Positions 1 to 41,132 of a DNA stretch of 64,000 bases are shown here, in pieces. The DNA lies in contig CAVVPN010000003.1 in the NCBI GenBank assembly GCA_963750165.1, forward strand, positions 928,001 to 992,000, written 5' to 3'. The notes beneath the pieces were generated by a model. It was not told the origin of the DNA. It saw nothing but the letters and a program-made list of their open reading frames with translations, and made no database searches. Position numbers and translations under genes: made by a program. Source of the stretch: an uncultured Gemmataceae bacterium. Its GTDB lineage: Bacteria; Planctomycetota; Planctomycetia; Gemmatales; Gemmataceae. Numbering within the stretch: position 1 is the first letter of the stretch; each line of letters starts with the position of its first letter.

Positions 1-2
1 AG

Positions 3-104
3 GGCCCGAAGGACGCGGCCAACGAGGTCATCATCCGCGCCGGCGGCGGCCAGACCGCGGCGCTGAAATTCACCCTGTACGTCGTCCGCCGGCTGCACGC
101 CTGA
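3..104 (+). CDS. tssK: 3' end of probable T6SS baseplate/connector TssK (partial, runs off window start)
   Basis: Open frame GPKDAANEVIIRAGGGQTAALKFTLYVVRRLHA* ending 35 bp before tssL. The ending resembles TssK C-termini and the position fits the usual tssK-tssL-tssM order. Confidence 0.55.
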   Translation, partial: GPKDAANEVIIRAGGGQTAALKFTLYVVRRLHA

Positions 105-139
105 GCGGCCGCCGCCAACTCGCTGGGATTGCGCACGCC

Positions 140-868
140 ATGCGTGAGGACATCGCCGAACTGGTGCATGCCGTGTTCCGGGGCGGGTTCCGCCTGAAAG
201 AGCGGCTGGCCGCCGGGGAGCCCGTGGACCTCAAGGAGGGCCGCCGCGACCTGCTGCGGCTGCTCGACAACCCCCTGCTGCACGCCGGCGACAGGTACGA
301 CCTGGGCGTCCACTACGCGCTGGTGTGCTGGCTGGACGAGCTTCTCATCGACGACACGCCGGCGGGCCAGCAGTGGAGCGAGGAGTTTTGCCTGGAGCAG
401 GAACTCTATCAGACGCGCCTGCGGGCCCACAAGTTCTGGAACCCCGGCGTCAAGGCGGCCGAGGCGCGGCCCGGCGGCGACGTGCTGGAGGTGTATTACC
501 TCTGCTACCTGCTCGGCTTCCGGGGCGATGAGGACAGCCGCCCCGCCGACCTGGCCGCCTGGGCCGAGCGCGTGCGGCCGCAGGTGATGCGCGGCTACGG
601 CGAGGAACCGGCGCAGCTCGATAAGAGCACGCCGGACTCGGACGTGCCGTACCTGTTTGGGCGGTCGCAGTTCCGCAAGATGCTCCAGACGTGGGCCGTG
701 GCGTTGTTGATCCTGGCCTTCGTGGTGGGCTTCCTGGTGGTCTACCGGTTCGGCTCCCGGGTCAGCGCCCACGCCGCAGCGTGGGCCGAGCATGCCGCCC
801 GGCTGCATTGTGCTCCGGAGAGATCATGGGCTTCTTGCGTTGGATCTGGGACGGCCTCCGGCAACTGA
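140..868 (+). CDS. tssL: T6SS membrane subunit TssL (DotU family)
   Basis: YALVCWLDE, W..F.LE..LY, LEVYYLCYLLGFRG DotU motifs. Single C-terminal TM (AVALLILAFVVGFLVVY), no OmpA domain. Confidence 0.9.
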   Translation: MREDIAELVHAVFRGGFRLKERLAAGEPVDLKEGRRDLLRLLDNPLLHAGDRYDLGVHYALVCWLDELLIDDTPAGQQWSEEFCLEQELYQTRLRAHKFWNPGVKAAEARPGGDVLEVYYLCYLLGFRGDEDSRPADLAAWAERVRPQVMRGYGEEPAQLDKSTPDSDVPYLFGRSQFRKMLQTWAVALLILAFVVGFLVVYRFGSRVSAHAAAWAEHAARLHCAPERSWASCVGSGTASGN

Positions 869-2427
869 TCGGCCTGATTCTACCGATCTTTTCGAAGGCG
901 GCCGACTTCCGGTCGTACAGCTCGGGCGCGAAAATCGCCCTGCACGTCCTCGTTTTGGTCGTGGTCCTGGCCGGGTTGACCTTCCTGCAGAACTGGGTGC
1001 TACTGAGTTTCACCCTGGCTTTCCCCAATCACCCGTACCTCAAATGGATGTGGCTGCCGGTCCTGTTCCTGCTGGTGTACGTCCTCGTCTGGCTGCTCTG
1101 GTGGCTGTGGCACATCCTCCTCAGCGAGGAGGCCGGCTCGGACTTCCCGGACCTGGACGCGGCCTGGGGCGAGATCAGCAAGGCCCTGCAGGCGGCGAAC
1201 ATTGCCTTGCAGGACGTGCCGTTGTACCTGGTGCTGGGCCGGCCGGCGGCGGGGGAGGCGGCGTTGTTCCACGCCGCCCGCCTGCCGTTTCTGGTCAAGC
1301 AGGCGCCGGGCCCGGACGCGCCGGTGCAGGCCTGGGCCAACCGGCAGGACGGCATTTACGTCGCCTGCGTGGACTCGTCGCGGCTCGGCTCCCGGGCGAG
1401 CCTGCTGGCGCTCACCGGGGCCGAGGACTCGGGCGGCGCCGCCGCGCCGCTGGAGTTCGACGCCGCGACCGCCACCATCGGCGGCGCCACCATCGGGGCC
1501 GGCATGCAGGTAAATGTCGGCGGGTTGCTGGACGAGCAACTGCCGGAGGGGGAGCGGCGGCGCCGGGCCAAGGCGCTGGACGTGGCGGACCAGCCGGAGC
1601 TGGCCCGGCGGTTGACGGCGCGGCTGGAGCACCTGTGCCGGCTCGTGGCCCGGGAGCGCTGGCCGGAGCCGCCCGTCAACGGCATCCTGGTGCTGATCCC
1701 GCACGTCGCCACGCAGTCGCGGGCGGCCGCGGAGGGCACGACGCGCGACTGTCAGCAGGATCTGGAATCGGTCTGGAACGTCTTCCGGCTGTCTTGCCCG
1801 CTGTTCGCGCTGGTGTGCGACCTGGAAAAGGCCCCGGGGTTCGCGGACTTCCTGGAGGGCCACCTGGCGCGCTGCCGGACCGAGGAGGAGCGGCGCAAGG
1901 AGCGGCGGCGGCGCCTGGGCCGCCGCCTGGGCTGGGGCGTGGGCATGGACCCGGCGACCCGCCGCAGCGCCATCGAGGAACAGGTTGGGTGGATCGGCCG
2001 CGGCATGTTCCCGCACCAGATCTACAAAAGCGTTTTCTACACGGAACGGCCGGGGCGTGAGGACCCCGCCGAGATCATCCGTCACAACTACCAGGTCAGC
2101 CGCTTCTTCAACGCCATGTTCCAGGGCCAGCGCTGGCTGACCGCCATCGTTCGGGACGGCCTGATTATCCGGCAGGACGGGCCGGAGTTACTGGGCGGCT
2201 GTTACCTGGCCGCCACCGGCCAGGACGCGGACCGCGAACAGGCGTTCGTCGCCGGGGTGTTTGAGCGCCTGCAGGAATCCCTCCGCCTGATTCGCTGGAG
2301 CGACGAGGCCTTTCAGGAGGACGCCCAGTACCAGCAGTGGACGCGCCTCGGCTATCTCGGCTTGCCGGTGTTCGTTCTCGTCGTGGCGGTGCTGCTGATC
2401 CTGTGGTGGCAACCGTTTGGGGGCTGA
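826..2427 (+). CDS. tssM: TssM/IcmF-like protein: N-terminal TMs + cytoplasmic IcmF-N domain + final TM, no periplasmic domain
   Basis: ATG 826 after GGAG. Two N-terminal TMs, PLYLVLG degenerate P-loop, PVNGILVLIP, CPLFALVCDLEKAPGFADF, GCYLAATG..QAFV.GVF motifs typical of IcmF-N. Follows tssL. Confidence 0.8.
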   Translation: MGFLRWIWDGLRQLIGLILPIFSKAADFRSYSSGAKIALHVLVLVVVLAGLTFLQNWVLLSFTLAFPNHPYLKWMWLPVLFLLVYVLVWLLWWLWHILLSEEAGSDFPDLDAAWGEISKALQAANIALQDVPLYLVLGRPAAGEAALFHAARLPFLVKQAPGPDAPVQAWANRQDGIYVACVDSSRLGSRASLLALTGAEDSGGAAAPLEFDAATATIGGATIGAGMQVNVGGLLDEQLPEGERRRRAKALDVADQPELARRLTARLEHLCRLVARERWPEPPVNGILVLIPHVATQSRAAAEGTTRDCQQDLESVWNVFRLSCPLFALVCDLEKAPGFADFLEGHLARCRTEEERRKERRRRLGRRLGWGVGMDPATRRSAIEEQVGWIGRGMFPHQIYKSVFYTERPGREDPAEIIRHNYQVSRFFNAMFQGQRWLTAIVRDGLIIRQDGPELLGGCYLAATGQDADREQAFVAGVFERLQESLRLIRWSDEAFQEDAQYQQWTRLGYLGLPVFVLVVAVLLILWWQPFGG

Positions 2428-2589: not shown

Positions 2590-5500
2590 ATGGAACGGAC
2601 GGACGCCAACCGGGACGCACTCACCCCGGCGGATCAGCAGGTCCTGGAATCGTGGCTGCAGGAATTTGAACAATCCTGGCACGAGGACAAGCTCGGCCAG
2701 ACCCTCCATGAACTGCCAGCGGAGGGGACGCTGCGCCAGGTGGCGATGAGCGAGCTGACCAAGCTGGACCTGCGCCACCGCTGGCGTCGGGGCGAGCCGA
2801 AGAAAATCGAGTCCTACCTGAACGACATTCCCGATCTCGGCACGTCGGCCACGCTGTCGGTGGACCTGATCCGCGCAGAGGTGGAAGTGCGGCGGGAACT
2901 GGGCGAAGACGTCTCGGAGCAGGAACTGCTGACCCGCTTCCCGCTGCACGCGGACCAGCTGCGGGGCGAATTCTCGCAGTCCTGGCGCGCCGTCCCCGGT
3001 TCGCGGCCGAGCGCCTCGCTCTCGACCATCAACCCCATCGACACCCCGGCCCCGCGCACGGCTCCCGCCCCCGCTCCCCCGGCTCCCCGGCCCGCCGGCA
3101 AGGCCCCGGCGGCCGCCACGGCCCTGCCCCGGGCCGGCCAGCGCTACCGGATTATAACGAAGCACGACCAGGGCAACGTGGGCGAGGTGTTTCTGGCCCT
3201 GGACGAGGAGGTGCCGCGCGAGGTGGCGCTCAAGCGGTTGCAGGCCAAGTGCGCCGACGACCCGGAAACCCGCGCCCGCTTCCTCCGCGAGGCTGAAATC
3301 TGCGGACGGCTGGAGCACCCGGGCGTCGTCCCCGTCTACGGCCTGGGCGTCGATTCCGACGGCCGCCCCTTCTACGCCATGCGCTTCGTCAAGGGGGAGA
3401 GCCTCCGCGAGGTCCTGCGCCGCTTCCACGGCCAGGGGCCGCGCGACGCCGGTGCCCGCCGCGTCGAACTGCACAAGCTGCTCGGCCGTTTCATTACCGT
3501 GTGCCAGGCGGTGGAGTTCGCCCACCGCAGCGGCGTGCTGCACCGCGACCTCAAGCCGGCGAACATCATGCTCGGCGAATTCGGCGAGACCCTGCTCGTG
3601 GACTGGGGCATGGCCAAAATCCTCGGCCAGGACGAGGAACCGGGCGGCGACGTGGTCAGTGCGGTCGAGGCCCTGCTGCCGGACGCGCCGGGGGACGGAC
3701 AGGCATCCGCCGCGTCCGCCCAGTCCACCGCCCGCGGCCCGCAAGCGGACCTCACCCAGACCGGGCAGATTCGCGGCACCACCGCCTTCATGAGCCCCGA
3801 ACAGGCGGCCGGGAAGATCCACGAACTCACCCCGGCCAGCGACATCTACGGCCTGGGGGCGACGCTGTACCAGATCCTGACGGGCAAGCCGCCGTTCGAG
3901 GGGTCGGACCTCCGGCACATCCTGGGCCGGGTGCGGGCCGGCGACTTCCCGCGGCCGCGCAAGCTGGCCCCGGCGGTCCCGCCTGCCCTGGAGGCGATCT
4001 GCCTGAAGGCGATGGCACTGCGGCCGGGACAGCGCTACCCCTCGGCCCGGGCGCTGGCCGACGACCTGGAGCGCTGGCTGGCCGACGAGCCGGTGAGCGC
4101 ACTGCCCGAGCCGTGGACCGCGCGGGCCGGGCGCTGGCTGCGGCGGCACAAGGCGCTGGTGACCGGCGCCGTCGTCCTGCTGACGGCGGCGGTGGTCGCG
4201 CTGAGCGCCAGCACCGTGCTGATCGCCGAGGCCCAGCAGCGGACCGAGCAGCAGCGTGCGGCGGCGGCGGCGGCGGAGCAACAGGCCCGCGCCGCCTTCC
4301 AGGACGCGGACCACCAGCGCCAGCTCGCGGTCGCGGCGGAGCAGAAAATCAAGGGCGCCCTGGACAAGGTCGAGGTCGCCCGACAGGACGCCGAACGCCA
4401 GCGCATCAAGGCTGTGGACTCTCAGGAGAAGGAGGCCGAAGCCCGTGCGGCGGCGGAGCAGGCCCTTGCGAACGAGAAGGCGGCGCGGGAACAGGAGCAG
4501 GCGGAACGGAAGAAGCGGGCCCTGGCCGAGGCCGAGGGCCTCACCGAGGCCAACCCGGTCGCGGTGCGCAAGGTCATCGACATCCTGAAGTCCACCCCCC
4601 AGGACGTGCTGCCGCACGTGCTGCCGCGGCTGCGCGAACTCTGGGAGCGGAAAAAGCCGCCCCTGAGCCTCGGCCAGCGCCTCCGCGTCGGCGTGGCTCT
4701 GCTGATGCTGGACGACAAGGCGACCAGGGACATGCTCGCCGCGCTGCCCGGGTTGATGCTGCAGACGGACGACCCCGGGGAATTGCTCCTGGTGCGCGGC
4801 GCCCTGGAGCCGCACCGCGCGGCGGTGGCCCCGGCCCTGTGGCAGAAGGCGGACGACCCGAAGACGCCGAACGCCGAACGCTTCCGCGCGCTGGCGGCGC
4901 TGGCGGGGCTGGACGACGCGAAGGCCCGGTGGCACAACCCGACCTGGGCGCCGGCGAAAACCACTGCCGCCGGCACGCCCACGGCCTTTGTCGTCGAGCA
5001 CCTGCTGTCCGCCAACGCCCTGCGCCTGGGCCAGTGGGCCGAGGCGTTCCGGCCGGTCAGCGCGGAGTTGCTCGAGCCGCTGCAGGCGGCGTTCAAGGAC
5101 GCCCACCGACCGCACCGCGGGGTGGTGGCGGCGCGGCTGCTGGCCGACTTCGCCGCCGGGCTGCCCGAACTGCTCGCGGGACTGGCGCTGGACGCAAAGG
5201 ACGAGCAGTACCTGTTGCTGCGGCCGGTTTTGCTGGCCCACCCAGACCGGGCGGCGCCCGTGTTCCGCAAGGAGCTGGCGCGGCCGAAGCCGGACGCGCT
5301 GGACGCCCAGGTCGCCCTGGCGCGGCGGCAGGCGCACGCAGCGGTGGCCCTGCTCCACCTGGGCCAGGTGCAGGAGTCGGGGCGACTGCTCAAGCACGGC
5401 CCGGACCCGACGCTGCGGACGTTTCTGATCCACGCCCTGGGCCGGCGCGGCACCGACCCGGACCTGCTGGTGAAGCGGCTGAAGGCGACGGACGAGGTGT

Positions 5501-6619
5501 CGGAGCGGCGGGCGTTGATCCTGAGCTTCGGCGAGATCGCGGCGGGGCAGTGGCCGCTGGCGCGACGCCAGGAGGTGACCCAGGAATTGTTGAAGTGGTA
5601 TCGCGAGGACCCGGACCCGGGCGTGCATAGCGCCATCGACTGGCTGCTGCGGCACGGCATGCAGGGGCCGGTGCCGCGCAAACTGGACTGGCAGCAGGCC
5701 GCGGCGCTGGACAAACTCGACCGGAACCTTGCCGCCCTCGGCGACAAACTCCCGGTTGGTCGCGACTGGTTCGTCACAGCCCGGGGTGGGCACACGCTGG
5801 CAGTGGTCCGCAGACCTGTCGAGTTCTGGATGGGATCGCCTGCGGGCGAGCCACGGGGCTGGAGCTTTGACAACGAGGCGCTGCACCGCAAACGCATTCC
5901 CCGCTCCTTCGCGGTCGCCACGCGCGAGGTGACCGCCGCGCAGTTCAAGGCGTTTTTGCAAGCGCATTCGGAGCTGCAGAAGAAACACAAGCTGGAAAGC
6001 CAGGAGCGGTTCGGCCCCGACCCGGACGGGCCGGCGCTGGGGGTCACCTGGTCCGAGGCGGCTGCCTACTGCAACTGGCTGAGCAAGATCAACGGCATCG
6101 ACGCGGACCAGTGGTGTTACCAGATCAACGCCAGTTCCGGGGCCGTGAAAATGGCCCCCAATTTCCTCAACCTGCGCGGCTACCGCCTGCCCACCGAGTC
6201 GGAATGGGAATACAGCTGCCGGGCCGGCGCGGACCCGCTGGGGATTCGGCAACGGGGTCGCGATGCTGCCCGAGTACGCGTGGTTCTTCCTCACGAGCGA
6301 GGACCGCGCCTGGCCGGTGGGCCAGTTGAAGCCCAACGACCTCGGCCTGTTTGACATGCACGGCAATGCCTGGGAGTGGTGTCAGGATCGGGTGATGACA
6401 TTCGATTACCCGAAGAACGTGGCCGGCCAGGCCGTCGTGGAAACGCTGGAGCGGGAACTCACGCCTCTCGCGGCCAACCGGCGGTGTGTCATGCGTGGCG
6501 GTTCGTTCTTCAATCGAGCGCCCATCACCCGCTGTGCGCAGCGTTACCTTGGGAAAGTGCTGGGCGATCCGCCGGCCAACGACGCCGGCTTTCGGGTCGC
6601 ACGCACCATGCAACTCTGA
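2590..6619 (+). CDS. Membrane Ser/Thr protein kinase with C-terminal FGE-sulfatase (SUMF1-like) domain; frameshift near 6231
   Basis: VALK, HRDLKPANIM, DWGMAK, GTTAFMSPEQ motifs, then TM (ALVTGAVVLLTAAVVALS) and a coiled coil. FGE motifs FWMGS, YRLPTESEWEYSCRAG continue in another frame as KPNDLGLFDMHGNAWEWC..RGGSF..GFRVART*. Confidence 0.9.
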
Positions 6620-6747: not shown

Positions 6748-8524
6748 CTATTCCGGGACATCCACCAACACCACTCCGGTGGAGATACGCTCGCTCTCAG
6801 GACGAATGACCGTCCTGGGCGCTGGCGCTGGAGGGACCGCACCCGGGGCGGTTGGCGCCGGACCAGGAGGCTGCATCTCGATCGGTCTCGGGGCGTACCG
6901 CACCGGGAAGGCCGGCGCCGCGCCGGGTTGCACCGTGACAGCAGACGCTGGCGTGACCGGCGTCCATGCGGCCTGCCGGGGTGCGAACTGCACCGGGGTC
7001 GTCGGGGCGGGGTTGGTCCGCACCGGGATGATCGGCGCCGAGATGACCGGCGGCAGGGCGGCGGGCGGCTGGTCGAATCGCACCGGGGCTACTGGAGCCG
7101 GAGCGGCCGGCAGCGGGCCGGTTGACAGCGGAGCCACCGGAGCCGGAGCGGCCGGCAGCGGGTCGAATCGCACCGGACTGATCAGCGGGGGAACGGGGGG
7201 AAGCAGGGTCGCCGACGCCGTGAAGGACGCCGGGGCGGACGGCATCGGGGCGAATCCGGCCGTGGTGGCCGCCGCCGGGGCGACGCCCACCGGCGTGATT
7301 GGCGCCGGCGCGGGGTGCGGCGGCGCAACCGGCACTGGGTTGGTGCGCATCGAGGTGGCCGGCGCCGGGGCGGCCTGCTTCGGAACGGCCTGTTTCGGAA
7401 CGACCTGCTTCGGAGCGACGCGCGCCGGGGATTCCGGGGTAGCGTTGAGGGAGTTTTCAATCACGCCGAAAAAGCTGGCCTCGGGGCGGGGCGACGCGGA
7501 CGGCGACGCGGGCATGGCGTTCCCCATCTTCTCGAGGGCTTTCCGCGAATTGGCCACCACCTGAGCCAGCGTCATTTTCTCGATGCGCTGATAATAAGAA
7601 AGCGCGCCGGCGCCCTTGGCGGGCGTGCTGCCGGGGTTTGCGGGCGTGGCCGCGGCGGTTTTGGCGGGCGCCTCGCTGGCGGCCTTGGCGGGCGTGGTAC
7701 CGGCGGTCTTGGTGGGCGCCGCTCCCGCCCTGGCGGGCACTTCCGGCGGGAGGGCCTCCACCGGTTTCTTGTCGAGTTCCCGAAGGGGCGGCCCTTCCAC
7801 CAGCGGGGGTTCGATGGGCACCAAGTCCGGGGGCACCGCCGCCGCGAAGCGGGCCAGGCAGGAGTTCAGCGCCATCCAGGCGGTGGCCCGCACGCGCTCC
7901 GAGGCCTCCGGCGGTCGGCCGTCCTCGTCGTTACAGGTCACCGTCAACGTCAGGGCCTGAATGGTGGACCTGGTGCAGCAGCAGCCGCGGCCCAGCGCCA
8001 GCGCCGCCTCCCAGCGCACGCACTCGTTACGGTCGGCGCAGGGCGTTAATCAGCGCCTCCTGTGCCTCGGGCCAGTAGCGGCAATCGACCGTGCCCAGGT
8101 AGCGGACGTCGGCCCGGCGCGCCTTGGCGGCGGCCTCGTCGGCCTTGACCAGGGCGGCGGCCCCTGTCGGGCTGTCCGCCGGCGCCGCCAGCTGCGCGGC
8201 GGTCGGCAGGTCCGGGCAGCAGTTCCCGAGGATGCCGCCGCTGAAGACGCGGATGGGGGCCAGGCTGTTGTTGAAGAACTGCCCCACCGGCGAGGCACAG
8301 AACTTCGCCTTGCAGTAGGCACAGGTGGCGATCAGGTTCGCGATCTTGGTCCCGGCCGGTGGGCCGGCCGCGGGGACGACGGCGGCAGCCGGTGCTGCCG
8401 CGAGGGGCCCGGCCGCGGCCGGCGCCACCGGCACGGCCGCGGCCGGCACGGCCGGAACCTGACCGCGAGCGGCTGGCAGCAGCAGGGCCACCAGCACCAC
8501 TGGGGCGCCGAATTTCTTCCACAT
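6748..8524 (-). CDS. Exported Cys-rich HEAT-repeat-like protein with long Pro/Ala-rich C-terminus; frameshift near 8036
   Basis: Signal peptide MWKKFGAPVVLVALLLPAARG. ORFs 8027..8626 and 6748..8019 join as EALINALR-(A)DRNECVRWEAALALG, a HEAT/PBS-like repeat. Low-complexity tail with internal repeats (PLPAAPAPVAP x2, PVRFD x2). Confidence 0.7.
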
Positions 8525-8965: not shown

Positions 8966-10224
8966 ATGAGGTGGGAGTCAAGTCAGCCCCGTGGGGGCAA
9001 GGCGAAGGTTTGGGCGTTCGGGTTGACGTGCGTGGCCCTGTTGACCGGGGTTGCGCCGGCGCTGGCGCAGAAGCCTACTGACGCCCCGCCGACGAAGCTG
9101 TCGGACCTCGCCGCCCCGACGTTGGCGGCGGCGCCGGCGGCGCCGGACGCCAACGTGACCCAGGCGAGCTGCAGCACCTGCTCCGGCGGACTGCTCGGCG
9201 GCTCGCTCGGCGGCCCGCCGCCGCTCCCCGGCGACGGCGGCGGCTGCGGCGGTGGCGGCTGTGGCGGCGGTCAGTGCGTCCCGGGGCGATTGAACTGTTG
9301 CAGCTGCTGCGAGGGCCAGACCTGCCTGGGCCGCATGCTCTGCGGGTTCTACGAGTGCATCTGCTGCCCCGACCCCTGCTACGATCCACACTGGATCGCC
9401 CTCGCCGACTCCGCCCTCTTCGTGAACGCGCCCCGGCCCGTCACCCAGATGCACTGCGCTACGACGGCATTTACGGCATCCCGTTCGCGGATCGGGCTGA
9501 ATACTACTTCGCCCGGGACACGGGCACCCCGGCGGGCGGCGGCCGCGGGCCGAACTTCAACATGGCGCGCCTCGTCAACATCAATCAGCTGAGCCTGTAT
9601 AACGAAGCGGCCCTGGGGCGGTTCAGCGCCTTCATCGCGGTCCCGTACAACGAGGTCCACCGCGACACCGACTTCGGCTACAGCGTCGCCAGCTCCGGCT
9701 TCGGGAACCTGAGCGTCGGCACCAAGTCCATGTTACTCGACTGTGAGTTGCTGCAGATCACGTTGCAATTCACCACGTACATCCCCACCGCCAGCCCCGG
9801 CGGCGGCCTGGCAAACGGCCACGTGAGCCTGGAACCGGCCCTGCTGTTCGCGTTAAAGTTGACCCCCGAATCGTACTTCCAGGGGGAACTGGCCCAGTGG
9901 ATTCCGGTCGGCGGGGACACAATCTACCAGGGGAACGTGTTCCACTCCCACTTCAGCTTCAACCACATCCTGTGGCGTTTCCTCCCCGACGTGCAGTTGA
10001 TCGGGACGATGGAGCTGAGCGAGTGGTCGGTGTTGAACGGCAACTTCACCGACCCGTTGACCGGCGCGATCCAGCGGGCGGCCGGGTCCGCCTGGAGCCT
10101 CGGGCCGGGCCTGCGGTTAAACATCTGCAACCGGATCGACTTCGGCGCGGGGGTGCAGTTCGGCGTCGGCTCAGATCGGTGGTATGACGAGAACTTCCGG
10201 GCAGAATTCCGGTGGCGCTTCTGA
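8966..10224 (+). CDS. Putative outer-membrane beta-barrel protein with Cys/Gly-rich N-terminal region; frameshift near 9452
   Basis: ATG after GAAGGAG, signal peptide ending ALA, Cys-rich segment. Then amphipathic beta strands with GFGNLSVGTK and PT..GLANG motifs resembling MetA-pathway/phenol-degradation barrels, and C-terminal FRAEFRWRF (BAM beta-signal-like terminal Phe). Confidence 0.7.
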
Positions 10225-11620: not shown

Positions 11621-12151
11621 ATGTCGCGCAGCATTCACGACGAGCTGAGTATGGTCCGCAAGCCCCGGGTACACATCACCTACGCGGTGGAAACCGAAGG
11701 GGCAGAGGTCGTCAAGGAACTGCCCTTCGTGGTGGGCGTCCTGGGCGACTTCTCAGGCAACCCCACCGAGCCGCTCAAGCCGCTGAGCGAGCGCAAGTTC
11801 ATCCAGATCGACCGGGATAATTTCAACGACGTGCTGCGGCGGATGACGCCGGGGCTGAACCTGCGGGTGGCGAACACCCTGAAGGACGACGGCAGCGAAC
11901 TGCCGGTGCAGCTGAAATTCAACTCGCTGGACGACTTCACGCCGGGCCAGGTGGTCAAGCAGGTGGAGCCGCTCCGCAAGTTACTCGAGGCCCGCAACAA
12001 GCTCCGCGACCTGTTGACGCGCGTGGACCGATCCGAAAAACTGGAGGGCCTGCTCGAGGAGGCCCTGCAGAACACCGAAAAACTCAAGCAATTCACGCCG
12101 GGTTCGGGCGGCGATGCCGCGGGCGACGCGAAGAAGGGGGGTGACTCGTGA
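11621..12151 (+). CDS. tssB: T6SS sheath small subunit TssB
   Basis: [50 protein letters not shown]. Confidence 0.97.
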
Positions 12152-26945: not shown

Positions 26946-26953
26946 GGTGCGGC

Positions 26954-27349: not shown

Positions 27350-27360
27350 GAGAGTCGGCC

Positions 27361-27909: not shown

Positions 27910-27922
27910 CCGCAGGTGGCGC

Positions 27923-28540: not shown

Positions 28541-28584
28541 CGGCCGGGCCGGGGGCGACCGGTCACGGTGGCGCGGAGGATTCG

Positions 28585-32706: not shown

Positions 32707-35700
32707 ATGGCCGATAAATCTCCACCCCCCTGGCGCGGAGGTGCCTCGAACTCCGGCCGGCCCACCGGTGGCGGCAATAAACCCTGGAGCAGCAAACCCC
32801 AGCAAGCGGCAGCCTCCGCGCGGCCCTTCCGGGTTCCGCGACGCGTCGTGGTCGGCTTCCTGCTAACCGCGGTCCTGGCGACGGTGGCGACGCTGATTTA
32901 CATCGGCACGCGGCCCGAGACGCCGAAACAGCCTCGCCTCGTCCTCATCGGGGCGGACTACGCCGAGAATCTGGGCGTGCCACCCAACCCGCACGGCATG
33001 CAGAGCCTGCTGGACCTCAAAGCCTATGCCGAAACCGCCGAATGGAAGGCCGGCGTCGAGCAGGAAAAGGTGTTCAACGTCCATCACGGGGCCCCTTTGA
33101 CCTTCAAGTCCCGCGACGCTGCCTACCTACTTCACGACCTGAACGAGGCCAGGGAGAAAACCATCATTGTTTACCTGGCCCTTCACGGCGGCGTTGATGC
33201 CAGGGGGCCTTACCTCCTCCCCCAGGACTATCAGGTTTATCCCCTCTCCGAAAGCAAACAGGGCCAGGGCCTGTTGCGTATCAGCGACGTGCTCGACCGC
33301 CTGGCGGAGTTGAAGGACAAAAACAAGGTTCTGATCCTCGACGCGACGCAAATCCCGGCTCACGCGCCGCTCGGGATGCTGCACAATGACTTCGCCCGGC
33401 AGCTGAAAGAGGGTGCGATCCGCAAGCAAATTGAGGCGATTCCCAACCTGGTGGTTCTCTGTGCCAGCGATGTCGGCCAGCGCTCCTGGTACTCCGAGGA
33501 GTGGGGCCGGACCGCCTTTGGGCATTATGTTCTGGAAGGGCTGAAGGGGGCCGCGGACCAAAACAATAACGGTCGCGTCACCGCGCAGGAACTCATCGAT
33601 TACCTGCAACTCAACGTCCGCAAATGGGTGCGTGCCAACCGCGACGAGGAGCAGGAACCGCTGTTCCTGGTCGGCAAGGAGACGGACCCCGCGCGGATGG
33701 AACTGGCGGTGTACGAGGGGTCGTACCAGTATGAGCCGCCGTCGCCCCGGATCGACGCCGCGGCCAGGGCCGCCCTGGACCGGGCATGGAACGGCTTCCA
33801 CGCCCTCCGTCAAAAGAACCCGTTCGCCCCCCAGCAACACCCGCAGCTGTGGCGGCGTTATCTGGACACGCTGCTGCGCTGCGAGCACCTGGCGCGCTCC
33901 GGCTGCGATGTCCAGCAGAGCACCGGCGGTCTGCTCACGAAACTGGGGACGTGGGAGAAGGAACTGTCCGACGCAGCGCCGCTGCCCCCGTCGCTGGAGC
34001 AGGCGGCGTCCCTCACCTTGCCGTTGCACGCGGCACTGGGGCGGGCCGTCCCCTGGGACAGGGCCCAGCTGAAGAAGTGGTTCGCCGGCCTGTGGAACCC
34101 CGACCCCAAAAAGAATCCCGACCCCAAAAAGAGTCGAGAAGTGTTCTGGGAGGAGGTGAAAAAGGCAGCGCTGGCGAAGGGGACCGAAACGCAACTGTGC
34201 CTGGAACTGGCGACCCTGGCCCTGCGGGCCGACGGGCCGCCCACGGCGAAGGCGCGCGAGCAACGCCGGCAACTGCTGCAATTGCTCTTTCCGGTGGCGG
34301 GCCGGCGCCCGGCCGAGGTTCACACCGTCTTGATGATCGACCAGGATCTCGACGACAAGAAGCAACCCGGTGAGGAACTGCTTGCCCGTTCCAAGGACCT
34401 GCGGTTGCTGGCGGAGCAGACGGTCCTGACGGCCCCCGCTGGCACCGCGTTCGACAGCGCCCGGGTCTTCCCCTGGGTCAAGGCGCAGGTGGCGGACGCG
34501 GACCGCGCACGCACGCTGGGACAGGACTGGCTGTTCGCGGCCGACGGCACCGGGTGGGAGCAGGCTGGGAAACACCTGAAGGACGCCGCCGCGAGGTACG
34601 AGGAGGCGCTGGAGGACGGCAAGGCCGTGCGTGAGGCGCTGGCGGTGCGCGACGAGGCACTGGCGACGCTGCCCTACTATACGCAATGGTTGGCGCGCCG
34701 GCGGTTCCCACCCGGCAAGCGAGAACTAAAGGCAGATGTCGCGGCGTGGGTGGGCAAGGTGGAAGCATTGTGGCAGGACACGCACCTGCTGGCGGGCCGG
34801 CTGACCGACCCGGAGGGGAGCGGGGTCCGGCACGCGGGCGACCGGGGCGAAAGCTTGCAGGTGCTGGCGGCGCGGGGCCGCCAGGGATTGCAGGAGGTCG
34901 CACGATTTTTCGAGGGGCAGTGCGTCGAGTTCAGCAAGGCCGGCGCCGGCGCGGCGTTGCCCTCGTTGTGGCATGACCTGGACGGCGTCCTGTTGGTGCC
35001 GTTCATCGAACCGGCACTGCGCACACAACTGCTGAAGGCCCATGCCCGGGTGGCCAAGGACCTCCACGACAAGTATGACCCGAAACGCAAGTTGGACCCG
35101 GCGGAGGACGACGCGGTCGCGAAGGAGCAGGAGCGCGGGATCGCGGCGGCCCGTCTTCAGGGGCGGCTAGCCTGCGCGGAACTGGGCTCGGAGTGGGTGA
35201 ACCAGCAGGGGGCAGGGCTGAAGTACAACGACCTGTGGGACACGATTCGGCGCGACCAGAAGGAGTACTGGGTGTCCCTGGGGGAGGCCGGCGGCCAGCT
35301 GGGGAAGCTGTTGCGGCGGCGGCCGCAGTCCCTGGAAGAGACGGCCCAGAAGCTCAAGCAGGCGAAATCGGTCGGTGAGGCCGGGAAGGCGGTGCGGGCA
35401 GCGGAAGTGGTCGCCCGCCACCTGGACGGTGCCGGGGCGGAGGTCGCCCCGCTGGACCCGGTGCTGGAGAACCGGTTGCTCCACCTGCACGGGCTGCTGG
35501 TCGGGCTGGCCGACCGCACCTGGCACGAACACTGGTGGTACACCCGCGCGGAGCAGGGGCCGAACCCGCAGCCCTACTACGTCACCGCCGTCGAGACGTT
35601 GCTGGACGCGGCGGGACAAATGGCCGTCGCGGGGAGTCCCTCGAACAGGGCGATCGAGGAACTGCGCAAGGCGGAGGTCCGGTCTGAGGGGGCGCGGCTG

Positions 35701-37833
35701 CGGCGTGCGGACGTGGCCTGCGCGCCGCTGGGGACGGCGTTCGACTGGACCAGCGAACCGCAGCACGTCGTGCGGTTCAAGATCGCACCGCCGCAGGTGC
35801 CGGGGGGGGCGACCGCAGAAGGCGTGGCCATGACCTCCCTGAAGGCCGACCGGTTGAAGACGCCCGGGGAGTACCAGGTGCGCGCGCCGCGGCCCCTCAC
35901 CGCCGCGAGCGCCGCCACGCCCCTGGAATACCACCTGACGAATCCCGCCCTGGACCAGCCGCCGACTGTGGCGTTCGTCAAGACAACGGCCACCCTGCAG
36001 GGGGTGTTCCGCGGTCAGCCGCTGACCCCGACCGCGCACCTCAACCTGCACCTGATCCCGGAAACCGTCGTGTACCGTCAGCCGCCGCCGACCATTGCCG
36101 GCGTCCACGTGCGCGCGGACGAGGAACTGCCGGCCGGGTCGGTCGCCATCGTGCTCGACTGTTCCGGGTCCATGAACGACCCGGTGGGAAAGGCGGGCGG
36201 GACGCGGTACACCTACGCCCTGCAGGCGCTGCGCGAAGTGCTGGGCAAGTTGCGCGAGGGCACCGAACTCAGCCTCCTGGTCTTCGGCCATGAAACAGTT
36301 CAGACCAACGACCTGATCGAAGTCTTTCGCAAACCGACGGAGTGGAAGGAGGCGCAGCTCGACAGCCTCATGAGGCGGCTCGGGAAACTGAAGCCCTACT
36401 ACAAGACACCCCTGGTGAAGGCGATGCTTCACGCCAGGGAGGACCTGAAGGGCAAGCCCGGCTTCAAAACGCTGGTGCTGCTCACCGACGGCACGGACAC
36501 GCTGTACCAGGAGGGGGACCCCGGGGAAACCCGGACAGAGAGGATCAAAAAGAGGTTACTCAAAGAATTCCGCAACCAGCAGATCATGATTAACATGATC
36601 ATTTTCAACGACGGCCGGAATGCGGCGGAGCGGCAGGAAATTCAGAACGCCCGGGACCAGTTCGAGGAGACGATTTACAAGCTGAACTCGCCTGAGGGCA
36701 AGCTGCGCACCGGGTTTTTCGTGGAGAAAGACGCCAAAAACCTGGTGCGCACGCTGCTCGAATTCATGCGGCCCCAGGCGCGCGTGCTGCAAAACCTCAA
36801 GGTGCTGGCCAAGATGCCCATGAGCTATTTCGAGGAGGAGGGCTACGACTTCTGGAAGCTGGAGCCGGGGGAAGACCGCGTGTACTCCCTCGCGGTGAAC
36901 CACGCGGACCAGTTCTTCCGGCTCGACCGCGGAGACTTTCTCGCCGTGCTGGTGCGGCCCAGCGCCGAGGCGCGGGCGGGCGTCGCGTTCGAGCGGCTGC
37001 TGTTCGCGGACCTGAAGGGGTGCGAGAAGCGGCCCCGGAAAAAAATCGGCGAGTGGCAACTGACCGTCCTGCAAAACCAGTACCTGATCAACCGGAAGAC
37101 CCTGGAGATGCTGGCGACCCTGGAAAACTGGAAGCGGGTCAAGCCCGACGGCGGCCGCCTGCGCCTGACGCGACCGGGCTTCATGTGGCTCGAGCTGGAC
37201 GCCCCGGGGGCGCACAAGCCCGTGCAGGTGCGCTGGGGGAACGAATGGCTTTACCCCGGCCCCACCTGGAAGTTGAAAGGGAGGGACTGGCCGACCGACG
37301 CCGGGACGGGGAACACCCCGCGGGGGAACAGTCCGCGGCTGTCCGCCTGGTGGACCTGGGCCGACGATCCCTTCCCCCCGGCCCACACGAAAGTGTTTCA
37401 CGAGGAGGGCAAGCGCTTCGAGGACGAGTTGCGCGACCGCGCGGAGAACGTCCGCGATGAGGGCGTGACCATCGAGAGCGTCACGACGGAGGAACTCCCG
37501 CGGGAAGGGGTTGCCGGGAAGGCGGAGTGCCTGGTGGTGCGGCTGCGGCACAAGGTCGGGAAGCCCGTCTGGGTGGAGTTGGGGGACCTGGCGCCCACGT
37601 ACCAGGAACACCACTTTTACGCGCGGGCCGGCAAGGTGACCGCCATCTTCTGGGGCATCTCGAACGACCAGGCCCAGAAACGGTTCTCGTTGAACCTGAC
37701 CTCGCTCGACGCCCTCAAGCACGACAGGAACACGTTCCGCCTGGCGGCCGACGAATTGCCCTTGCCCACGCCCGACCTGCCGCCGCCCAACCCGGTGACG
37801 TTGCGCACACCGGCGGTCGGTCGGCAGGATTGA
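32707..37833 (+). CDS. Giant membrane-anchored protein: caspase-like (C14, non-catalytic) domain + helical region + vWA domain
   Basis: N-terminal TM. YLALHGG, LILDATQ, LCAS..GQRS, F..YVLEGLKGAAD.NNNGRVT..EL caspase-fold motifs. vWA MIDAS IVLDCSGSM..TPL..LLTDG. Confidence 0.8.
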   Translation: MADKSPPPWRGGASNSGRPTGGGNKPWSSKPQQAAASARPFRVPRRVVVGFLLTAVLATVATLIYIGTRPETPKQPRLVLIGADYAENLGVPPNPHGMQSLLDLKAYAETAEWKAGVEQEKVFNVHHGAPLTFKSRDAAYLLHDLNEAREKTIIVYLALHGGVDARGPYLLPQDYQVYPLSESKQGQGLLRISDVLDRLAELKDKNKVLILDATQIPAHAPLGMLHNDFARQLKEGAIRKQIEAIPNLVVLCASDVGQRSWYSEEWGRTAFGHYVLEGLKGAADQNNNGRVTAQELIDYLQLNVRKWVRANRDEEQEPLFLVGKETDPARMELAVYEGSYQYEPPSPRIDAAARAALDRAWNGFHALRQKNPFAPQQHPQLWRRYLDTLLRCEHLARSGCDVQQSTGGLLTKLGTWEKELSDAAPLPPSLEQAASLTLPLHAALGRAVPWDRAQLKKWFAGLWNPDPKKNPDPKKSREVFWEEVKKAALAKGTETQLCLELATLALRADGPPTAKAREQRRQLLQLLFPVAGRRPAEVHTVLMIDQDLDDKKQPGEELLARSKDLRLLAEQTVLTAPAGTAFDSARVFPWVKAQVADADRARTLGQDWLFAADGTGWEQAGKHLKDAAARYEEALEDGKAVREALAVRDEALATLPYYTQWLARRRFPPGKRELKADVAAWVGKVEALWQDTHLLAGRLTDPEGSGVRHAGDRGESLQVLAARGRQGLQEVARFFEGQCVEFSKAGAGAALPSLWHDLDGVLLVPFIEPALRTQLLKAHARVAKDLHDKYDPKRKLDPAEDDAVAKEQERGIAAARLQGRLACAELGSEWVNQQGAGLKYNDLWDTIRRDQKEYWVSLGEAGGQLGKLLRRRPQSLEETAQKLKQAKSVGEAGKAVRAAEVVARHLDGAGAEVAPLDPVLENRLLHLHGLLVGLADRTWHEHWWYTRAEQGPNPQPYYVTAVETLLDAAGQMAVAGSPSNRAIEELRKAEVRSEGARLRRADVACAPLGTAFDWTSEPQHVVRFKIAPPQVPGGATAEGVAMTSLKADRLKTPGEYQVRAPRPLTAASAATPLEYHLTNPALDQPPTVAFVKTTATLQGVFRGQPLTPTAHLNLHLIPETVVYRQPPPTIAGVHVRADEELPAGSVAIVLDCSGSMNDPVGKAGGTRYTYALQALREVLGKLREGTELSLLVFGHETVQTNDLIEVFRKPTEWKEAQLDSLMRRLGKLKPYYKTPLVKAMLHAREDLKGKPGFKTLVLLTDGTDTLYQEGDPGETRTERIKKRLLKEFRNQQIMINMIIFNDGRNAAERQEIQNARDQFEETIYKLNSPEGKLRTGFFVEKDAKNLVRTLLEFMRPQARVLQNLKVLAKMPMSYFEEEGYDFWKLEPGEDRVYSLAVNHADQFFRLDRGDFLAVLVRPSAEARAGVAFERLLFADLKGCEKRPRKKIGEWQLTVLQNQYLINRKTLEMLATLENWKRVKPDGGRLRLTRPGFMWLELDAPGAHKPVQVRWGNEWLYPGPTWKLKGRDWPTDAGTGNTPRGNSPRLSAWWTWADDPFPPAHTKVFHEEGKRFEDELRDRAENVRDEGVTIESVTTEELPREGVAGKAECLVVRLRHKVGKPVWVELGDLAPTYQEHHFYARAGKVTAIFWGISNDQAQKRFSLNLTSLDALKHDRNTFRLAADELPLPTPDLPPPNPVTLRTPAVGRQD

Positions 37834-37860: not shown

Positions 37861-38847
37861 ATGTCCCAGGGACAGCATTCTCCGGACCGGCCGCCCCCGG
37901 CGTGGCGGTCGGCGCCGGGGGCACCGCCCGCGCCGGCCCGCCGGCTCCCCGCGGGCGGCACCGGCGGGCCGCGGTTGCGCAAACTGTTCATCCTGCTGGC
38001 CGTCATCCTCGGGCTGTGCGGGGCCATCGCCGCCTGGGTCTTTCTGCTGCGCACCTTCGACGAGCCGCTATTCGTGGCCCTGCCCATCACCGAGTATCGC
38101 GGGGCCGGACTGCCGAAAAACCCGTACGTGGAGGAGGACGGGGCAGCGCTGCGGCGACACTTCCCCGGCAGCCGTGGCGCGTTCGATTTCCAGGAACGGC
38201 ACCAGCTGGCGGCGGTGCTCCGCGGCCTGCGTCAGGAGAAGCCGCCCGCACTCGTCGTCTTCCTCTCGGCCCACGCCGTCGTCCGCGACGGCCAGGTTTA
38301 TCTCCTGCCAGGGGACGCGGTGCTCGACAACCCGGACACCTGGTTGCCCCTCGGCGCCGTGCTCACCAGCATGCGCCGGTGCCACACGGAGCACCGGTTG
38401 CTCATCCTCGACGTGATGCGAGCCACGGTGGGGCCGGACGCGAAGGCGGAAGACGGCGTCTCACGCCAGGTGTACTCGTTCCTGGAGAAGGAACTCGGCA
38501 AGCAGGAGGAACCGCCGTTGTTCGTGTTGTGTGCGTGCGGGCCGGGGGAAGTCGCGCTCGCCGCGGAGCCGGTGAAGTTGTCGCTGTTTGCCTACCACCT
38601 CAACGAGGGGTTGTACGGCGCGGCGGTTGGCTATGCCCGCAAGCGAAACGACGGGTTCGTGTCGGTCCGGGACCTGGCCGCCTACGCCGCCCACCACGTG
38701 GATGCGTGGGCCCGGCACAATCTCCACGTCCGCCAGCGGCCCGTGCTCCTGGGCGCCGGCCCGGACTTTTACCTGGCGTCGCGGTCGCGGCCACAGGCGC
38801 CGGCCCGCCCGGCGGATTTGCCCAGGCTGAAAGATTTGCCCCGCTGA
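37861..38847 (+). CDS. Second membrane-anchored caspase-like (non-catalytic) protein
   Basis: TM (LFILLAVILGLCGAIAAWVFLL), VVFLSAHA, YLLPGDA, LLILDVMR, VLCACGPGE, F.YHL.EGL.GAA..NDG.VSV.DL. Paralogous to the N-terminus of the previous gene. Confidence 0.75.
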   Translation: MSQGQHSPDRPPPAWRSAPGAPPAPARRLPAGGTGGPRLRKLFILLAVILGLCGAIAAWVFLLRTFDEPLFVALPITEYRGAGLPKNPYVEEDGAALRRHFPGSRGAFDFQERHQLAAVLRGLRQEKPPALVVFLSAHAVVRDGQVYLLPGDAVLDNPDTWLPLGAVLTSMRRCHTEHRLLILDVMRATVGPDAKAEDGVSRQVYSFLEKELGKQEEPPLFVLCACGPGEVALAAEPVKLSLFAYHLNEGLYGAAVGYARKRNDGFVSVRDLAAYAAHHVDAWARHNLHVRQRPVLLGAGPDFYLASRSRPQAPARPADLPRLKDLPR

Positions 38848-39097
38848 CCGTGTGGCGGTTCGGGGGCATCTTGTGGTTTACGCCGGCGAGCGGCGGCGGT
38901 AACGTTCCCGCGGGGGAGGCCGCGTTGACGAACCGTATTCCGGGCCTACGCATCAAGCATCCCTCGGCGGGCGCGAGCACAATAGAAAAGCCCCGGCGTC
39001 CGGGCGGACCCCTTCTGGGGACGGGACGTGGAGCGTCGCAAGCGCGCGGCCCTGTTCAGGGCGTGGGGCTGAAGCCCAGATAGAAAGGTTTACCGAA

Positions 39098-41056
39098 ATG
39101 GAACAACAACGATATTCGCGCTGGCGCGTTCCCCGGCAGGGTGGGTGGCCGCTCGGGGCGGTGCTGGCCATCGTCGTGTGGGGTAGCTGGGGGTGCGCCG
39201 CGGCCTCGGCGGCCGACTGGGAATTGCTCCTGAGCAGCACCCCCGACGTGCCGGGGACCACCTATAAGGTCTACGGCCTGCGCTGCAACGTGGAAAACCG
39301 CGTGTACCTGTCCGTCAAGAATGACACGGCGATCGCGGAGGCGGTGACGGTTCGGCTGTCCGTACCGGGGCCAGCCGGCAAGATGAAGCCGCTGGCCGAA
39401 CAAAAGCTGTCCGTGCCCGCCAACAAGACCGTCCCGGTCCTGTTCCCGCCGCCGGAACCGCCGAAGGACGGCAAACCGGCGCCGCCGCCGCCCCTGGCGC
39501 CGCTGGCCGGGCCGCCGTTCAAGATCCAGTTCCAGGTGGTGGGCAAGGCGAAAGTGCTGGCCGAAGGGGAGGTGTATTTTCGGATCCTGCACCCGAACCA
39601 GTTCGTGAACGTCCAGCAGCCGGAGTTCGATCTTCTGGAAGAGGGCAACACCCTGGTCGTCAAGGCGGAAGCGAAGGAGGACTTCACCGGGCCGCCGGCC
39701 CGGCTGGAACTGGTGCTGCAGCCGGACCGCATCCCCGGGCTGATTGTCAATAAAAAGGAGGGCGTTTACGCCCAGAAGCTGCGCAAGGCCGGCGACAAGA
39801 CCCGGCTGGTGGCCCGCAACCTGCTGTTCCGCAACCTGCTGCTCGAAAGCTGGGTAGGGCCGCCCAGCGGGCTGGTGCTGGTTCGGGTGGACGACTATGC
39901 GCGGGCGTTCCGCTTTCCGACGGCCTTTTCGCGATCCGGCAAGTCGGAAATCGCCCTGGCGGAGCCGGGCATCCGCATCGCGCGGCTGCCAGGCTACGGC
40001 CCGCCGGCGGAGAAACTTGTCGTGCCGCTGGAGGTGGACACGCCGGGCAGCCTCGACGATGTGACCGTCGTCACGCAGTTGCTCGTCCCCACCGGGGAGG
40101 GCAAGGACGGACCGGAGCTTGAGCAGCGCGACATCAAGAAGTTGTTGGGGGCGCGGCAGCAGGCCGTCCTGGTGAGCGCCGCCGACCCCACCGGGGCCCT
40201 GCTGTTCAACACCGCGGTGCAGGACTGGCGGGTGACGCTGGACACCGAGGGGCTGTTCGGCGAGGTGCGCGTCCGCGCCCAGATGTTCAACCGGAAGAAC
40301 AACGAGAAGGGCGAACCAATCCTCGAACCGTTCCTGGACGCGAAGAAGCGGCTCATCCCGGGCACGGTCGCCGAGGCGGTCTTCTTTTTCGACGACACGC
40401 CGCCGATCTTCGTGAAGTTCGCGCCGGTCAGCGAGTTCCCGCGCCGGCTGGTCCGCGGCGACCCGCTGCCGTTGAAGGCCCGCGGCAGTGACCCGGAGTC
40501 CGGCATTCGCAGCGCTGTCTTCTTCCGCGGCAAGCCGGTCCTCAACAAGAACGCGGTCAAGGTGCCGCCGCCCGACGCGGAATTGATCCCCGCCGTCCTG
40601 GCCGAGGGGTCGGAGAAAATGGTGACGGCGGCCGCCCTGCTGCCGCTGCCGAACGTGCAGAAGGGCATCATGGAGGTCTCGGTCCAGTTCGTCAACAACG
40701 CCAACCAGAGTTCGTTCGACACCATCCGGATCGAACTGGTGGAGCCCGGTCTCGGCAAGAACGGCAAACTCCTGCCCAAACTGTTCAAGGTTGAAGGCAA
40801 GGTGTTGCAGGGCGACATCGCCCAGCCGAACCTGGTCGTGCTGCTCCGAGACGAGAAGGGCAACCTGAAGGCTACCACCCGCACCGCGACCGGTCTGGAG
40901 AAGGAGAAGGACCGCGGCAGTTTCACCTTCATCGACGTGCCGCCGGGCGTGTACTCCGTGTCGTCCATCAACTCGCCCTCCAGGTCCCGCGGTCAAACGC
41001 TGGTCACGGTCGTGGACGGCGACGTGAAGGATGTGACCATCAAACTGCTCCGCTGA
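39098..41056 (+). CDS. Exported beta-rich (Ig-like) protein with C-terminal carboxypeptidase-regulatory-like domain
   Basis: Signal-peptide-like N-terminus (..CAAASAA/DW), FDDTPP, DPESGI, and KVEGKV..VVLLRDEKG..GSFTFIDVPPGVYSV tail. Confidence 0.7.
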   Translation: MEQQRYSRWRVPRQGGWPLGAVLAIVVWGSWGCAAASAADWELLLSSTPDVPGTTYKVYGLRCNVENRVYLSVKNDTAIAEAVTVRLSVPGPAGKMKPLAEQKLSVPANKTVPVLFPPPEPPKDGKPAPPPPLAPLAGPPFKIQFQVVGKAKVLAEGEVYFRILHPNQFVNVQQPEFDLLEEGNTLVVKAEAKEDFTGPPARLELVLQPDRIPGLIVNKKEGVYAQKLRKAGDKTRLVARNLLFRNLLLESWVGPPSGLVLVRVDDYARAFRFPTAFSRSGKSEIALAEPGIRIARLPGYGPPAEKLVVPLEVDTPGSLDDVTVVTQLLVPTGEGKDGPELEQRDIKKLLGARQQAVLVSAADPTGALLFNTAVQDWRVTLDTEGLFGEVRVRAQMFNRKNNEKGEPILEPFLDAKKRLIPGTVAEAVFFFDDTPPIFVKFAPVSEFPRRLVRGDPLPLKARGSDPESGIRSAVFFRGKPVLNKNAVKVPPPDAELIPAVLAEGSEKMVTAAALLPLPNVQKGIMEVSVQFVNNANQSSFDTIRIELVEPGLGKNGKLLPKLFKVEGKVLQGDIAQPNLVVLLRDEKGNLKATTRTATGLEKEKDRGSFTFIDVPPGVYSVSSINSPSRSRGQTLVTVVDGDVKDVTIKLLR

Positions 41057-41088
41057 TCCCGGAGCGCCTGGCAGGGCCTGGGTTGGCA

Positions 41089-41132
41089 GCGCCAGCGAAG
41101 GGGACAGCCCCCTCGCTGGCGTTCGCGTTTTT
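41089..41132 (+). terminator. Rho-independent terminator ending the T6SS-associated operon
   Basis: CGCCAGCGAAGGGG-acag-CCCCCTCGCTGGCG stem (one mismatch) followed by TTCGCGTTTTT. Confidence 0.65.

Follow-up and report, generated by a model that had tools for sequence, protein, structure and literature searches.

A type VI secretion locus of Planctomycetia with a truncated TssM and accompanying envelope protein families

We analysed a locus for a type VI secretion system (T6SS) in an uncultured Gemmataceae bacterium of the class Planctomycetia. The locus lies in a stretch of 64,000 nt (contig CAVVPN010000003.1, here C3, positions 928,001 to 992,000 of the forward strand), which is called the window below and to which coordinates refer; the assembly (GCA_963750165.1) has 9.6 Mb in 12 contigs and is 93% complete. 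Next to genes for the tail, the baseplate and TssL we observed a TssM that ends just after its third transmembrane (TM) helix, named mini-TssM, and genes of four envelope protein families: two giant proteins with caspase-like domains (giants A and B), a secreted HEAT protein and a small outer-membrane β-barrel. T6SS with mini-TssM is a real, conserved and class-wide variant typical of Planctomycetia. An initial annotation of the window had proposed that lineage-specific envelope proteins complete an inner-membrane platform made of TssL and the short TssM. The truncation, the absence of TssJ and the co-occurrence of these proteins with the system support this proposal; that the proteins make up a physical channel is what we infer from them.

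The T6SS genes and the truncated TssM

Searches with Pfam and NCBIfam profiles confirmed that, as first annotated, all tail, baseplate and recycling parts as well as TssL are present: tssA, tssB, two tssC, tagJ/ImpE, tssE, tssF, tssG, clpV, hcp, vgrG, DUF4150 PAAR and tssL (DotU). The TssK that was initially called probable is real, its gene being almost wholly upstream of the window (-1329..104) with only the last codons inside. The genes are as follows.

1..104 (+): 3′ end of tssK, start 1329 nt upstream (PF05936 E 2e-73; TIGR03353 265 bits, above the cut-off of 100)
140..868 (+): tssL (DotU), with a C-terminal TM helix (PF09850 E 1e-17, over cut-off; TIGR03349)
826..2427 (+): mini-TssM, 533 aa: TM1, TM2, cytoplasmic domain with degenerate Walker A, TM3, stop
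2590..6354 (+): Ser/Thr kinase with FGE-sulfatase-like C-terminus (Pfam Pkinase E 4e-30, FGE-sulfatase E 3e-20)
10443..11579 (+): tssA (ImpA_N; PF06812 E 9e-30)
11621..12151 (+): tssB (PF05591 E 1e-58)
12148..13635 (+): tssC1 (PF05943/PF18945; top PDB matches 9n4v, 5n8n)
13887..15455 (+): tssC2 (Pfam), frameshifted close to its end
15507..16307 (+): tagJ (ImpE; PF07024 E 5e-41)
16316..16808 (+): tssE, approximate limits, probable frameshift (PF04965 E 1e-16)
16809..18636 (+): tssF, frameshifted near 18365 (PF05947 E 5e-200)
18600..19694 (+): tssG (PF06996 E 4e-105)
20471..23125 (+): clpV (AAA and Clp_N domains)
23296..23787 (+): hcp (PF05638 E 5e-33)
23901..26177 (+): vgrG (PF05954, PF04717, gp5 C-terminal repeats)

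TssL gave no match to an OmpA domain. The kinase encoded after tssM we take to be akin to PpkA/TagR; its link to T6SS is putative.

In TssM, TM1 and TM2 are followed by an IcmF-related N domain and TM3, and the stop codon stands 7 residues past TM3. The initial claim that TssM lacks its periplasmic half was thus borne out, and the truncation is family-wide. The family profile covers residues 88-455 of a 1523-aa TssM, ending at TM3 of the latter (HHalign 98.5%). The Walker A motif GxxxxGK[ST] is degenerate, being found in one of 76 rows of the mini-TssM family; a search of PDB sequences with the mini-TssM profile gave nothing significant.

A protein search within the length range 293-933 aa produced 97 mini-TssM homologues of 326-602 aa. 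The last hydrophobic segment was located at most 30 residues from the C-terminus in 88 of them (median 5), while in the remaining nine the helix was near threshold (five), the sequence was a fragment (two) or a short tail followed (two). Longer forms, looked for in a weak search, were represented by one distant 1415-aa Phycisphaeraceae protein. In 301 genomes of the phylum, TssM open reading frames (ORFs) were 532-600 aa long in 9 matches from the same class versus 1124-1736 aa in 21 matches from other classes. Among 401 genomes of the class, 180 had a match to the TssM profile, 175 to TssB and 169 to both. No ORF longer than 1000 aa was present among the 150 TssM-profile matches listed for class genomes, 122 weaker ones lying outside that list; one class member, genome G457, has a canonical long TssM. 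Of the 61 loci found in a scan of species genomes, 59 came from entries titled planctomycetes, one from an uncultured bacterium and one from a bin titled Alcaligenaceae, where mini-TssM (locus L160) could reflect misbinning or transfer. Cultured planctomycetes with the locus include Singulisphaera sp. GP187 and Ch08 and Tundrisphaera sp. TA3. A second locus of genome G551 (L138-L141), with no match to TssB, encodes a 944-aa Ser/Thr kinase fused N-terminally to mini-TssM.

The absence of tssJ, initially noted for the window, was found to hold for the whole genome as well, though a very divergent form is conceivable. The genome-wide profile search, in which an E. coli positive control was matched, produced best E-values of 0.2 for TssJ (PF12790), 0.17 for IcmF_C and 0.8 for IcmF_helical, with no hit to PF06761; none was near the cut-off. 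Likewise, a profile of the periplasmic part of long TssM and two lipoprotein candidates from the phylum had no match among 61,815 six-frame ORFs of the same genome. Neither a tssJ nor a separate gene for the periplasmic domain of TssM was detected in these searches, upstream of the window or elsewhere. With a simple lipobox pattern we saw no conserved lipoprotein in the place of TssJ in 14 loci. Across the phylum, Pfam TssJ had no match in any of 47 class genomes but was found in 7 of 21 genomes of other classes.

Could the locus be a decayed T6SS, or an artefact of assembly, with a truncation that has no function? Frameshifts are present in the assembled genes of the barrel, the HEAT protein, tssC2 and tssF, and probably also in tssE and the kinase gene; at least four frameshifted genes, together with a giant B shortened in this assembly, speak for such an explanation. 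Still, frameshifts also affect 12 of 106 conserved genes with good coverage elsewhere in the assembly, so sequencing indels are the likelier cause and the frameshifts look like assembly noise. As to TssM, the same truncation occurs class-wide in intact single-contig genomes; frameshift or decay was therefore rejected as its origin. Largely refuted at the level of the family, the explanation is hardly credible.

Envelope protein families found with mini-TssM

Besides the T6SS genes, the following genes encode envelope proteins.

6748..8524 (-): secreted Cys-rich HEAT protein with Pro-rich tail, frameshifted near 8036; signal-like N-terminus as read from the sequence
8966..10224 (+): outer-membrane β-barrel, COG4313/PF13557-like, divergent from the HEAT gene, frameshifted near 9450
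32707..37833 (+): giant A, 1708 aa: N-in TM helix (~48-66), pseudo-caspase, ~650-aa helical scaffold, immunoglobulin (Ig)-like domain, vWA domain with metal ion-dependent adhesion site (MIDAS), further C-terminal region
37861..38847 (+): N-terminal piece of giant B, 328 aa: TM helix and pseudo-caspase
39098..41056 (+): C-terminal piece of giant B, 652 aa: own signal-like leader, β-sandwich chain, terminal transthyretin-like (CarboxypepD_reg) domain

The five accessory proteins of the initial annotation are all here: the barrel, the HEAT/Pro-rich protein (putatively exported, given its signal-like leader), two TM-anchored pseudo-caspases, the first with a vWA domain, and an Ig-like protein with a signal-like leader. 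They make up four families, however, since the Ig-like protein is not a gene family of its own and forms, with the second pseudo-caspase, one protein, giant B. The usual length of giant B is 1450-1800 aa, and giants A and B are paralogous over their first 750-890 residues. In the window the helical middle of giant B is mostly missing (~550-700 residues lost), and this deletion may be genuine.

Basic residues and one hydrophobic helix at the start of the giants indicate N-in topology. In 10 split copies of giant B we saw by eye that the freed Ig half opens with a signal-like leader, which supports a periplasmic location of the C-terminal part. These predicted features support a periplasmic orientation of the giants. 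The caspase-like domains were matched by NF047832 below its cut-off (E 5e-7 and 4e-6), and their top atlas matches were all C14 (0.92); the caspase profile had no significant match to PDB sequences. In an alignment of 73 rows, with some loci fetched twice, the His and Cys of the catalytic dyad occurred together in 0 of 32 giant A rows and 0 of 41 giant B rows, the His being retained in 19 of 32 rows of A. As no row has both catalytic residues, an active caspase was rejected. The vWA domain of giant A kept its MIDAS motif in 13 of 15 rows.

The predicted fold of giant A residues 345-1140 (predicted local distance difference test, pLDDT, 89) consists of ~650 helical residues and one Ig-like sandwich; its matches are generic, with Z ~10 for the Ig part and only small bundles for the helical part. 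The C-terminal piece of giant B (pLDDT 87) is a β-sandwich chain with a terminal transthyretin-like domain (best Z 12.7, root-mean-square deviation 1.5, 78 residues).

One could speculate that the giants are the detached and no longer recognisable periplasmic half of TssM, so that a canonical structure has merely been split into separate genes. The giants are N-in and single-pass, with a helical region followed by β domains, and are often encoded directly beside tssM; the fold of TssJ, moreover, is transthyretin-like, as is the terminal domain of giant B. Yet HHalign comparison of the profile of the long-TssM periplasmic part, a small one, with A and B gave probabilities of 0.2% and 0.1%, and the profile finds nothing in the own genome. 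Caspase and vWA domains are present in the giants, whose confident models resemble generic Ig domains and helical bundles, TssM and TssJ being absent among the fold matches listed, which does not exclude a relation. A search among longer proteins, again weak, produced no fusion of TssM and a giant. All this makes the split quite improbable.

The HEAT protein, which matches 940 cluster representatives at E<1e-30, combines a signal-like leader with conserved cysteines and a Pro-rich tail. The barrel is matched by PF13557 above the cut-off (E 5e-6; 27.1 bits, cut-off 22), as the initial assignment would have it, and is COG4313-like (atlas, 0.97). Five related barrels, three of the barrel family and two of its upstream paralogue, had no Pfam match, and the barrel had no significant match to PDB sequences. 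The two genes are at most 4 kb apart in 23 of 30 genomes, often far from tssM and the main locus; in one more genome they are on different contigs. The tube formed by Hcp is ~8-9 nm wide. The accessible text of PMC4493636 describes a solved relative as a plugged 12-stranded barrel. Such a plugged relative, set against the width of the tube, makes it unlikely that the barrel is itself the pore, and by this analogy it is probably an anchor. Just upstream of tssK is another barrel gene (L001:16772-17983; -2729..-1518 relative to the window, +), which is related to the first (HHalign 94%). Of 31 loci, 6 contain a member of this second family, and in two cases it lies between tssK and the first barrel gene.

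To follow the four families across the class we used profiles with separate thresholds. The C-terminal profile of giant A, with a cut-off (E<1e-15) placed in the gap above generic vWA matches, detected 147 of 175 TssB-positive versus 8 of 226 TssB-negative genomes, and five of these eight carry mini-TssM. A profile of the giant helical region matched strongly in 16 of the 28 misses (3 within the query alignment), bringing the total to 163 of 175; in the 21 long-TssM genomes of other classes only the vWA part was matched. The other families were searched for in a chosen set of 42 mini-TssM, 24 TssM-negative and 14 long-TssM genomes. Giant B (E<1e-40) was found in 33, 0 and 0 of these, the HEAT protein (E<1e-20) in 39, 1 and 0, and the barrel (E<1e-12) in 32, 1 and 0, respectively. 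For genomes outside the query alignments the counts were 20/29 for giant B, 26/29 for HEAT and 21/31 for the barrel. The co-occurrence of accessory genes with T6SS, for which the initial annotation had called for a check, is thus tight across the class, and the families were not found in the long-TssM genomes tested.

Genes were called in 30 mini-TssM loci and one long-TssM locus, 80 kb each. Many systems are spread over several loci, and within the 80-kb stretches we observed giant A in 16, giant B in 17, HEAT in 14 and the barrel in 12 of 30. Genome G645, with two systems, has two copies of all four families; in G303 each of two systems has its own giant A and giant B. In family f86 (loci L122-L133 of G321, G339 and G562) there is a mini-TssM of 470-500 aa and one giant of 1280-1370 aa, located beside tssK in two of the three genomes; two of three also have a 630-aa TssA, and no giant B, HEAT or barrel was observed in L122-L133. 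The envelope complex of f86 is possibly a simpler version.

These distributions could also be read with the giants, the HEAT protein and the barrel as sensors or positioning factors, anywhere from useful to essential (like TagQRST/PpkA or TslA), and not as a channel; a ring of TssL and mini-TssM alone would then tether the baseplate, and the spike would force its way through the envelope. Modules such as vWA/MIDAS and Ig domains serve in adhesion or sensing; the gene after tssM encodes a kinase here, and in G551 a kinase is fused to mini-TssM; B, HEAT and barrel went undetected in part of f86. Also, TssJ is dispensable in some systems, according to the part of 10.1101/2023.12.21.572528 that was available. 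On the other hand, a giant is present in ~93% of TssB-positive genomes, specifically where the periplasmic half of TssM is gone, and TssJ-less Acinetobacter retains the periplasmic channel of TssM, as far as the available text of PMC12949010 goes. A role in sensing or positioning is the main alternative to a channel, but we consider it unlikely.

The spike-loading cassette and neighbouring genes

One further element of the T6SS locus lies after vgrG.

26214..31788 (+): class II Tvp-like spike-loading cassette: DUF6484, DUF4150 PAAR, SMI1/KNR4 immunity-like gene, 205-aa ORF (candidate effector), DUF2169, PRK06147-like protein and TIGR02270 HEAT

The class II Tvp system, as defined in the portion of PMC13373197 that was accessible, has DUF6484 after vgrG, DUF2169, a PRK06147-like protein and a DUF4150 PAAR protein; all four parts were found here, with the PRK06147 match below cut-off. 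Positions 27361-28540 hold the SMI1/KNR4 immunity-like gene and then the Cys-rich 205-aa ORF, in which a D-H-like motif was noticed by eye. The latter had no family match and is a candidate antibacterial effector of nuclease type.

The cassette bears on the possibility that nothing is secreted across the outer membrane, with a tethered contractile machine firing into an enlarged periplasm or at material taken in, and with the giants organising membrane contacts. Planctomycetes do have a large periplasm and an invaginated inner membrane, and we saw neither a wide outer-membrane pore nor, in the 14 loci scanned for lipoboxes, a conserved lipoprotein. However, ClpV, TagJ, TssA, the cassette and the immunity-like gene fit repeated firing at other bacteria, and a conserved outer-membrane barrel co-occurs with the system. 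Firing within the periplasm is improbable.

Several other genes were noted. Between tssG and clpV there is a 114-aa ORF (19944-20288) with no family match. A well-formed 255-aa ORF (31796-32563, -) between the cassette and giant A had no family match and no homologue in the fetched loci. Genes for a P-type ATPase and Usp/HAD proteins (41389-46406, -) mark the boundary of the T6SS locus. Inside the T6SS loci L084, L091, L111, L115 and L076 a 127-138-aa protein and a sigma-factor-like gene (clusters C36 and C23) were observed, possibly a dedicated regulator. In loci L082-L085 and L090-L093 a secreted repeat-like protein of 1770-1790 aa adjoins giant A and a kinase (two loci), and a homologue is found near the G321 system.

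A possible trans-envelope complex

How does the system compare with those described? Its tail, baseplate, spike, ClpV, TagJ, TssK and TssL are orthologous to those of T6SS-i (TssJ-TssL-TssM, like P. aeruginosa H1 with TagJ and ClpV); TssC best matches the T6SS sheaths 9n4v and 5n8n, and TssM retains TM1-TM3 and the cytoplasmic domain. The differences are the missing TssJ and TssM periplasmic domain, the degenerate Walker A motif and four extra co-inherited envelope families. The core is T6SS-i-like, yet two defining features, TssJ and the periplasmic domain of TssM, were not found.

In T6SS-iii of Bacteroidota, going by the accessible part of PMC10781749, tssJ, tssL and tssM are all absent, and there is TssNQOPR with single-pass proteins, Ig-like PKD and vWA domains and the lipoprotein TssR. 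Here, too, lineage-specific single-pass periplasmic proteins with Ig-like and vWA domains would replace the canonical channel; in contrast to T6SS-iii, however, TssL and half of TssM are kept, the 1600-aa pseudo-caspase proteins are new and a β-barrel is linked. None of 35 window ORFs and 31 family members matched Pfam TssN, TssO, TssP, TssQ or TssR. The TssJ-less T6SS of Acinetobacter, in what could be consulted of PMC12949010, shares the lack of TssJ, the presence of lineage-specific helpers (in Acinetobacter TsmK, TslA and TagX) and the retention of TssL and TssM, but its TssM is full length and spans the periplasm, whereas here the periplasmic half is gone.

Within the phylum, the long-TssM T6SS of other classes has TssM of 1124-1736 aa and likewise lacks a Pfam TssJ match in 14 of 21 genomes, but giant B, HEAT and barrel went undetected in the 14 tested, as did the giant helical region in the 21 tested. 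TssC of one long-TssM genome, G147, groups inside the mini-TssM systems in a comparison with one outgroup. In loci L142-L149 and L118-L121 of other classes TssM is 1360-1740 aa long and its periplasmic part has no Pfam IcmF match; G147 also has a small lipoprotein of 175 aa upstream of tssK. These systems possibly have a further unusual membrane complex.

In the full-text literature we found no description of a planctomycete T6SS membrane complex; subscription journals and supplements, the latter of which may list planctomycete T6SS loci, are outside this statement. Neither 'Planctomyc' nor 'caspase' occurs in the main text of PMC10781749, and the accessible parts of PMC3482391, 10.1101/031039 and 10.1101/2023.12.21.572528 contain no account of an architecture with mini-TssM and giants.

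We find it fairly probable that TssL and mini-TssM form a platform on which giants A and B replace the periplasmic channel of TssM, with the HEAT protein and the barrel as outer-membrane anchor. A tail and baseplate of T6SS-i type would thus stand on a rebuilt envelope complex. TssL and the three-helix mini-TssM would keep the inner-membrane platform, where TssK, by analogy with the canonical system, would dock, and co-inherited proteins would stand in for the lost channel and TssJ. The giants would insert beside TssL and TssM, with their dead caspase domains on the periplasmic face, probably oligomerising; their helical scaffolds may serve as a wall or spacer, while the Ig chains and the vWA domain would point outward. 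The secreted Cys-HEAT protein and the small barrel would probably form the anchor. Physical assembly, the role as a channel and secretion itself are projected from gene content.

Several observations weigh against this reading of the giants as a channel with a HEAT/barrel anchor. All support is genomic. Pfam TssJ and PF06761 were both missed in 14 of 21 long-TssM genomes, which makes Pfam absence weak evidence; the firm evidence for the lost periplasmic half is the stop after TM3. The E-value thresholds were set post hoc to exclude generic vWA, Ig and HEAT matches, related genomes are not independent, and the counts carry no P value. A strong match to a giant is missing in 12 of 175 TssB-positive genomes, several of them fragmented. 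Nor are B, HEAT and barrel universal: in G321 and G339 the T6SS is complete and accompanied by a single divergent giant, and the other three families went undetected. Homologues of HEAT and the barrel occur in G328, where neither TssB nor mini-TssM was found, and G551 combines mini-TssM with a barrel but lacks TssB and the giants. The loss that giant B has suffered here is one that a rigid structural component might not withstand. What speaks for the reading is that in 14 loci the pairwise identities of giant A correlate more closely with those of TssL (0.69) and TssM (0.65) than with those of TssK (0.52) and TssF (0.44); shared ancestry or linkage may contribute to this.

With somewhat less assurance, at a little better than an even call, we suggest that the system is a T6SS subtype of Planctomycetia in its own right, in which a ring of half-TssM and TssL is continued by a hetero-oligomer of giant dead caspases across a wide periplasm and docked on the HEAT/β-barrel anchor. 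Such a subtype would be present in ~44% of the sampled Planctomycetia genomes.

How a T6SS crosses the envelope without a TssM/TssJ channel is a question even for studied species. With the channel half of TssM deleted class-wide and a short list of candidate replacement genes, it becomes testable in cultured planctomycetes. If our reading is true, TssJLM and TssNQOPR would be joined by another membrane-complex architecture, an independent solution to envelope crossing in which the caspase fold is put to structural use and an integral outer-membrane barrel is part of a T6SS. Four unannotated families would also gain names, and the finding would bear on the competition of planctomycetes in soil and on surfaces.

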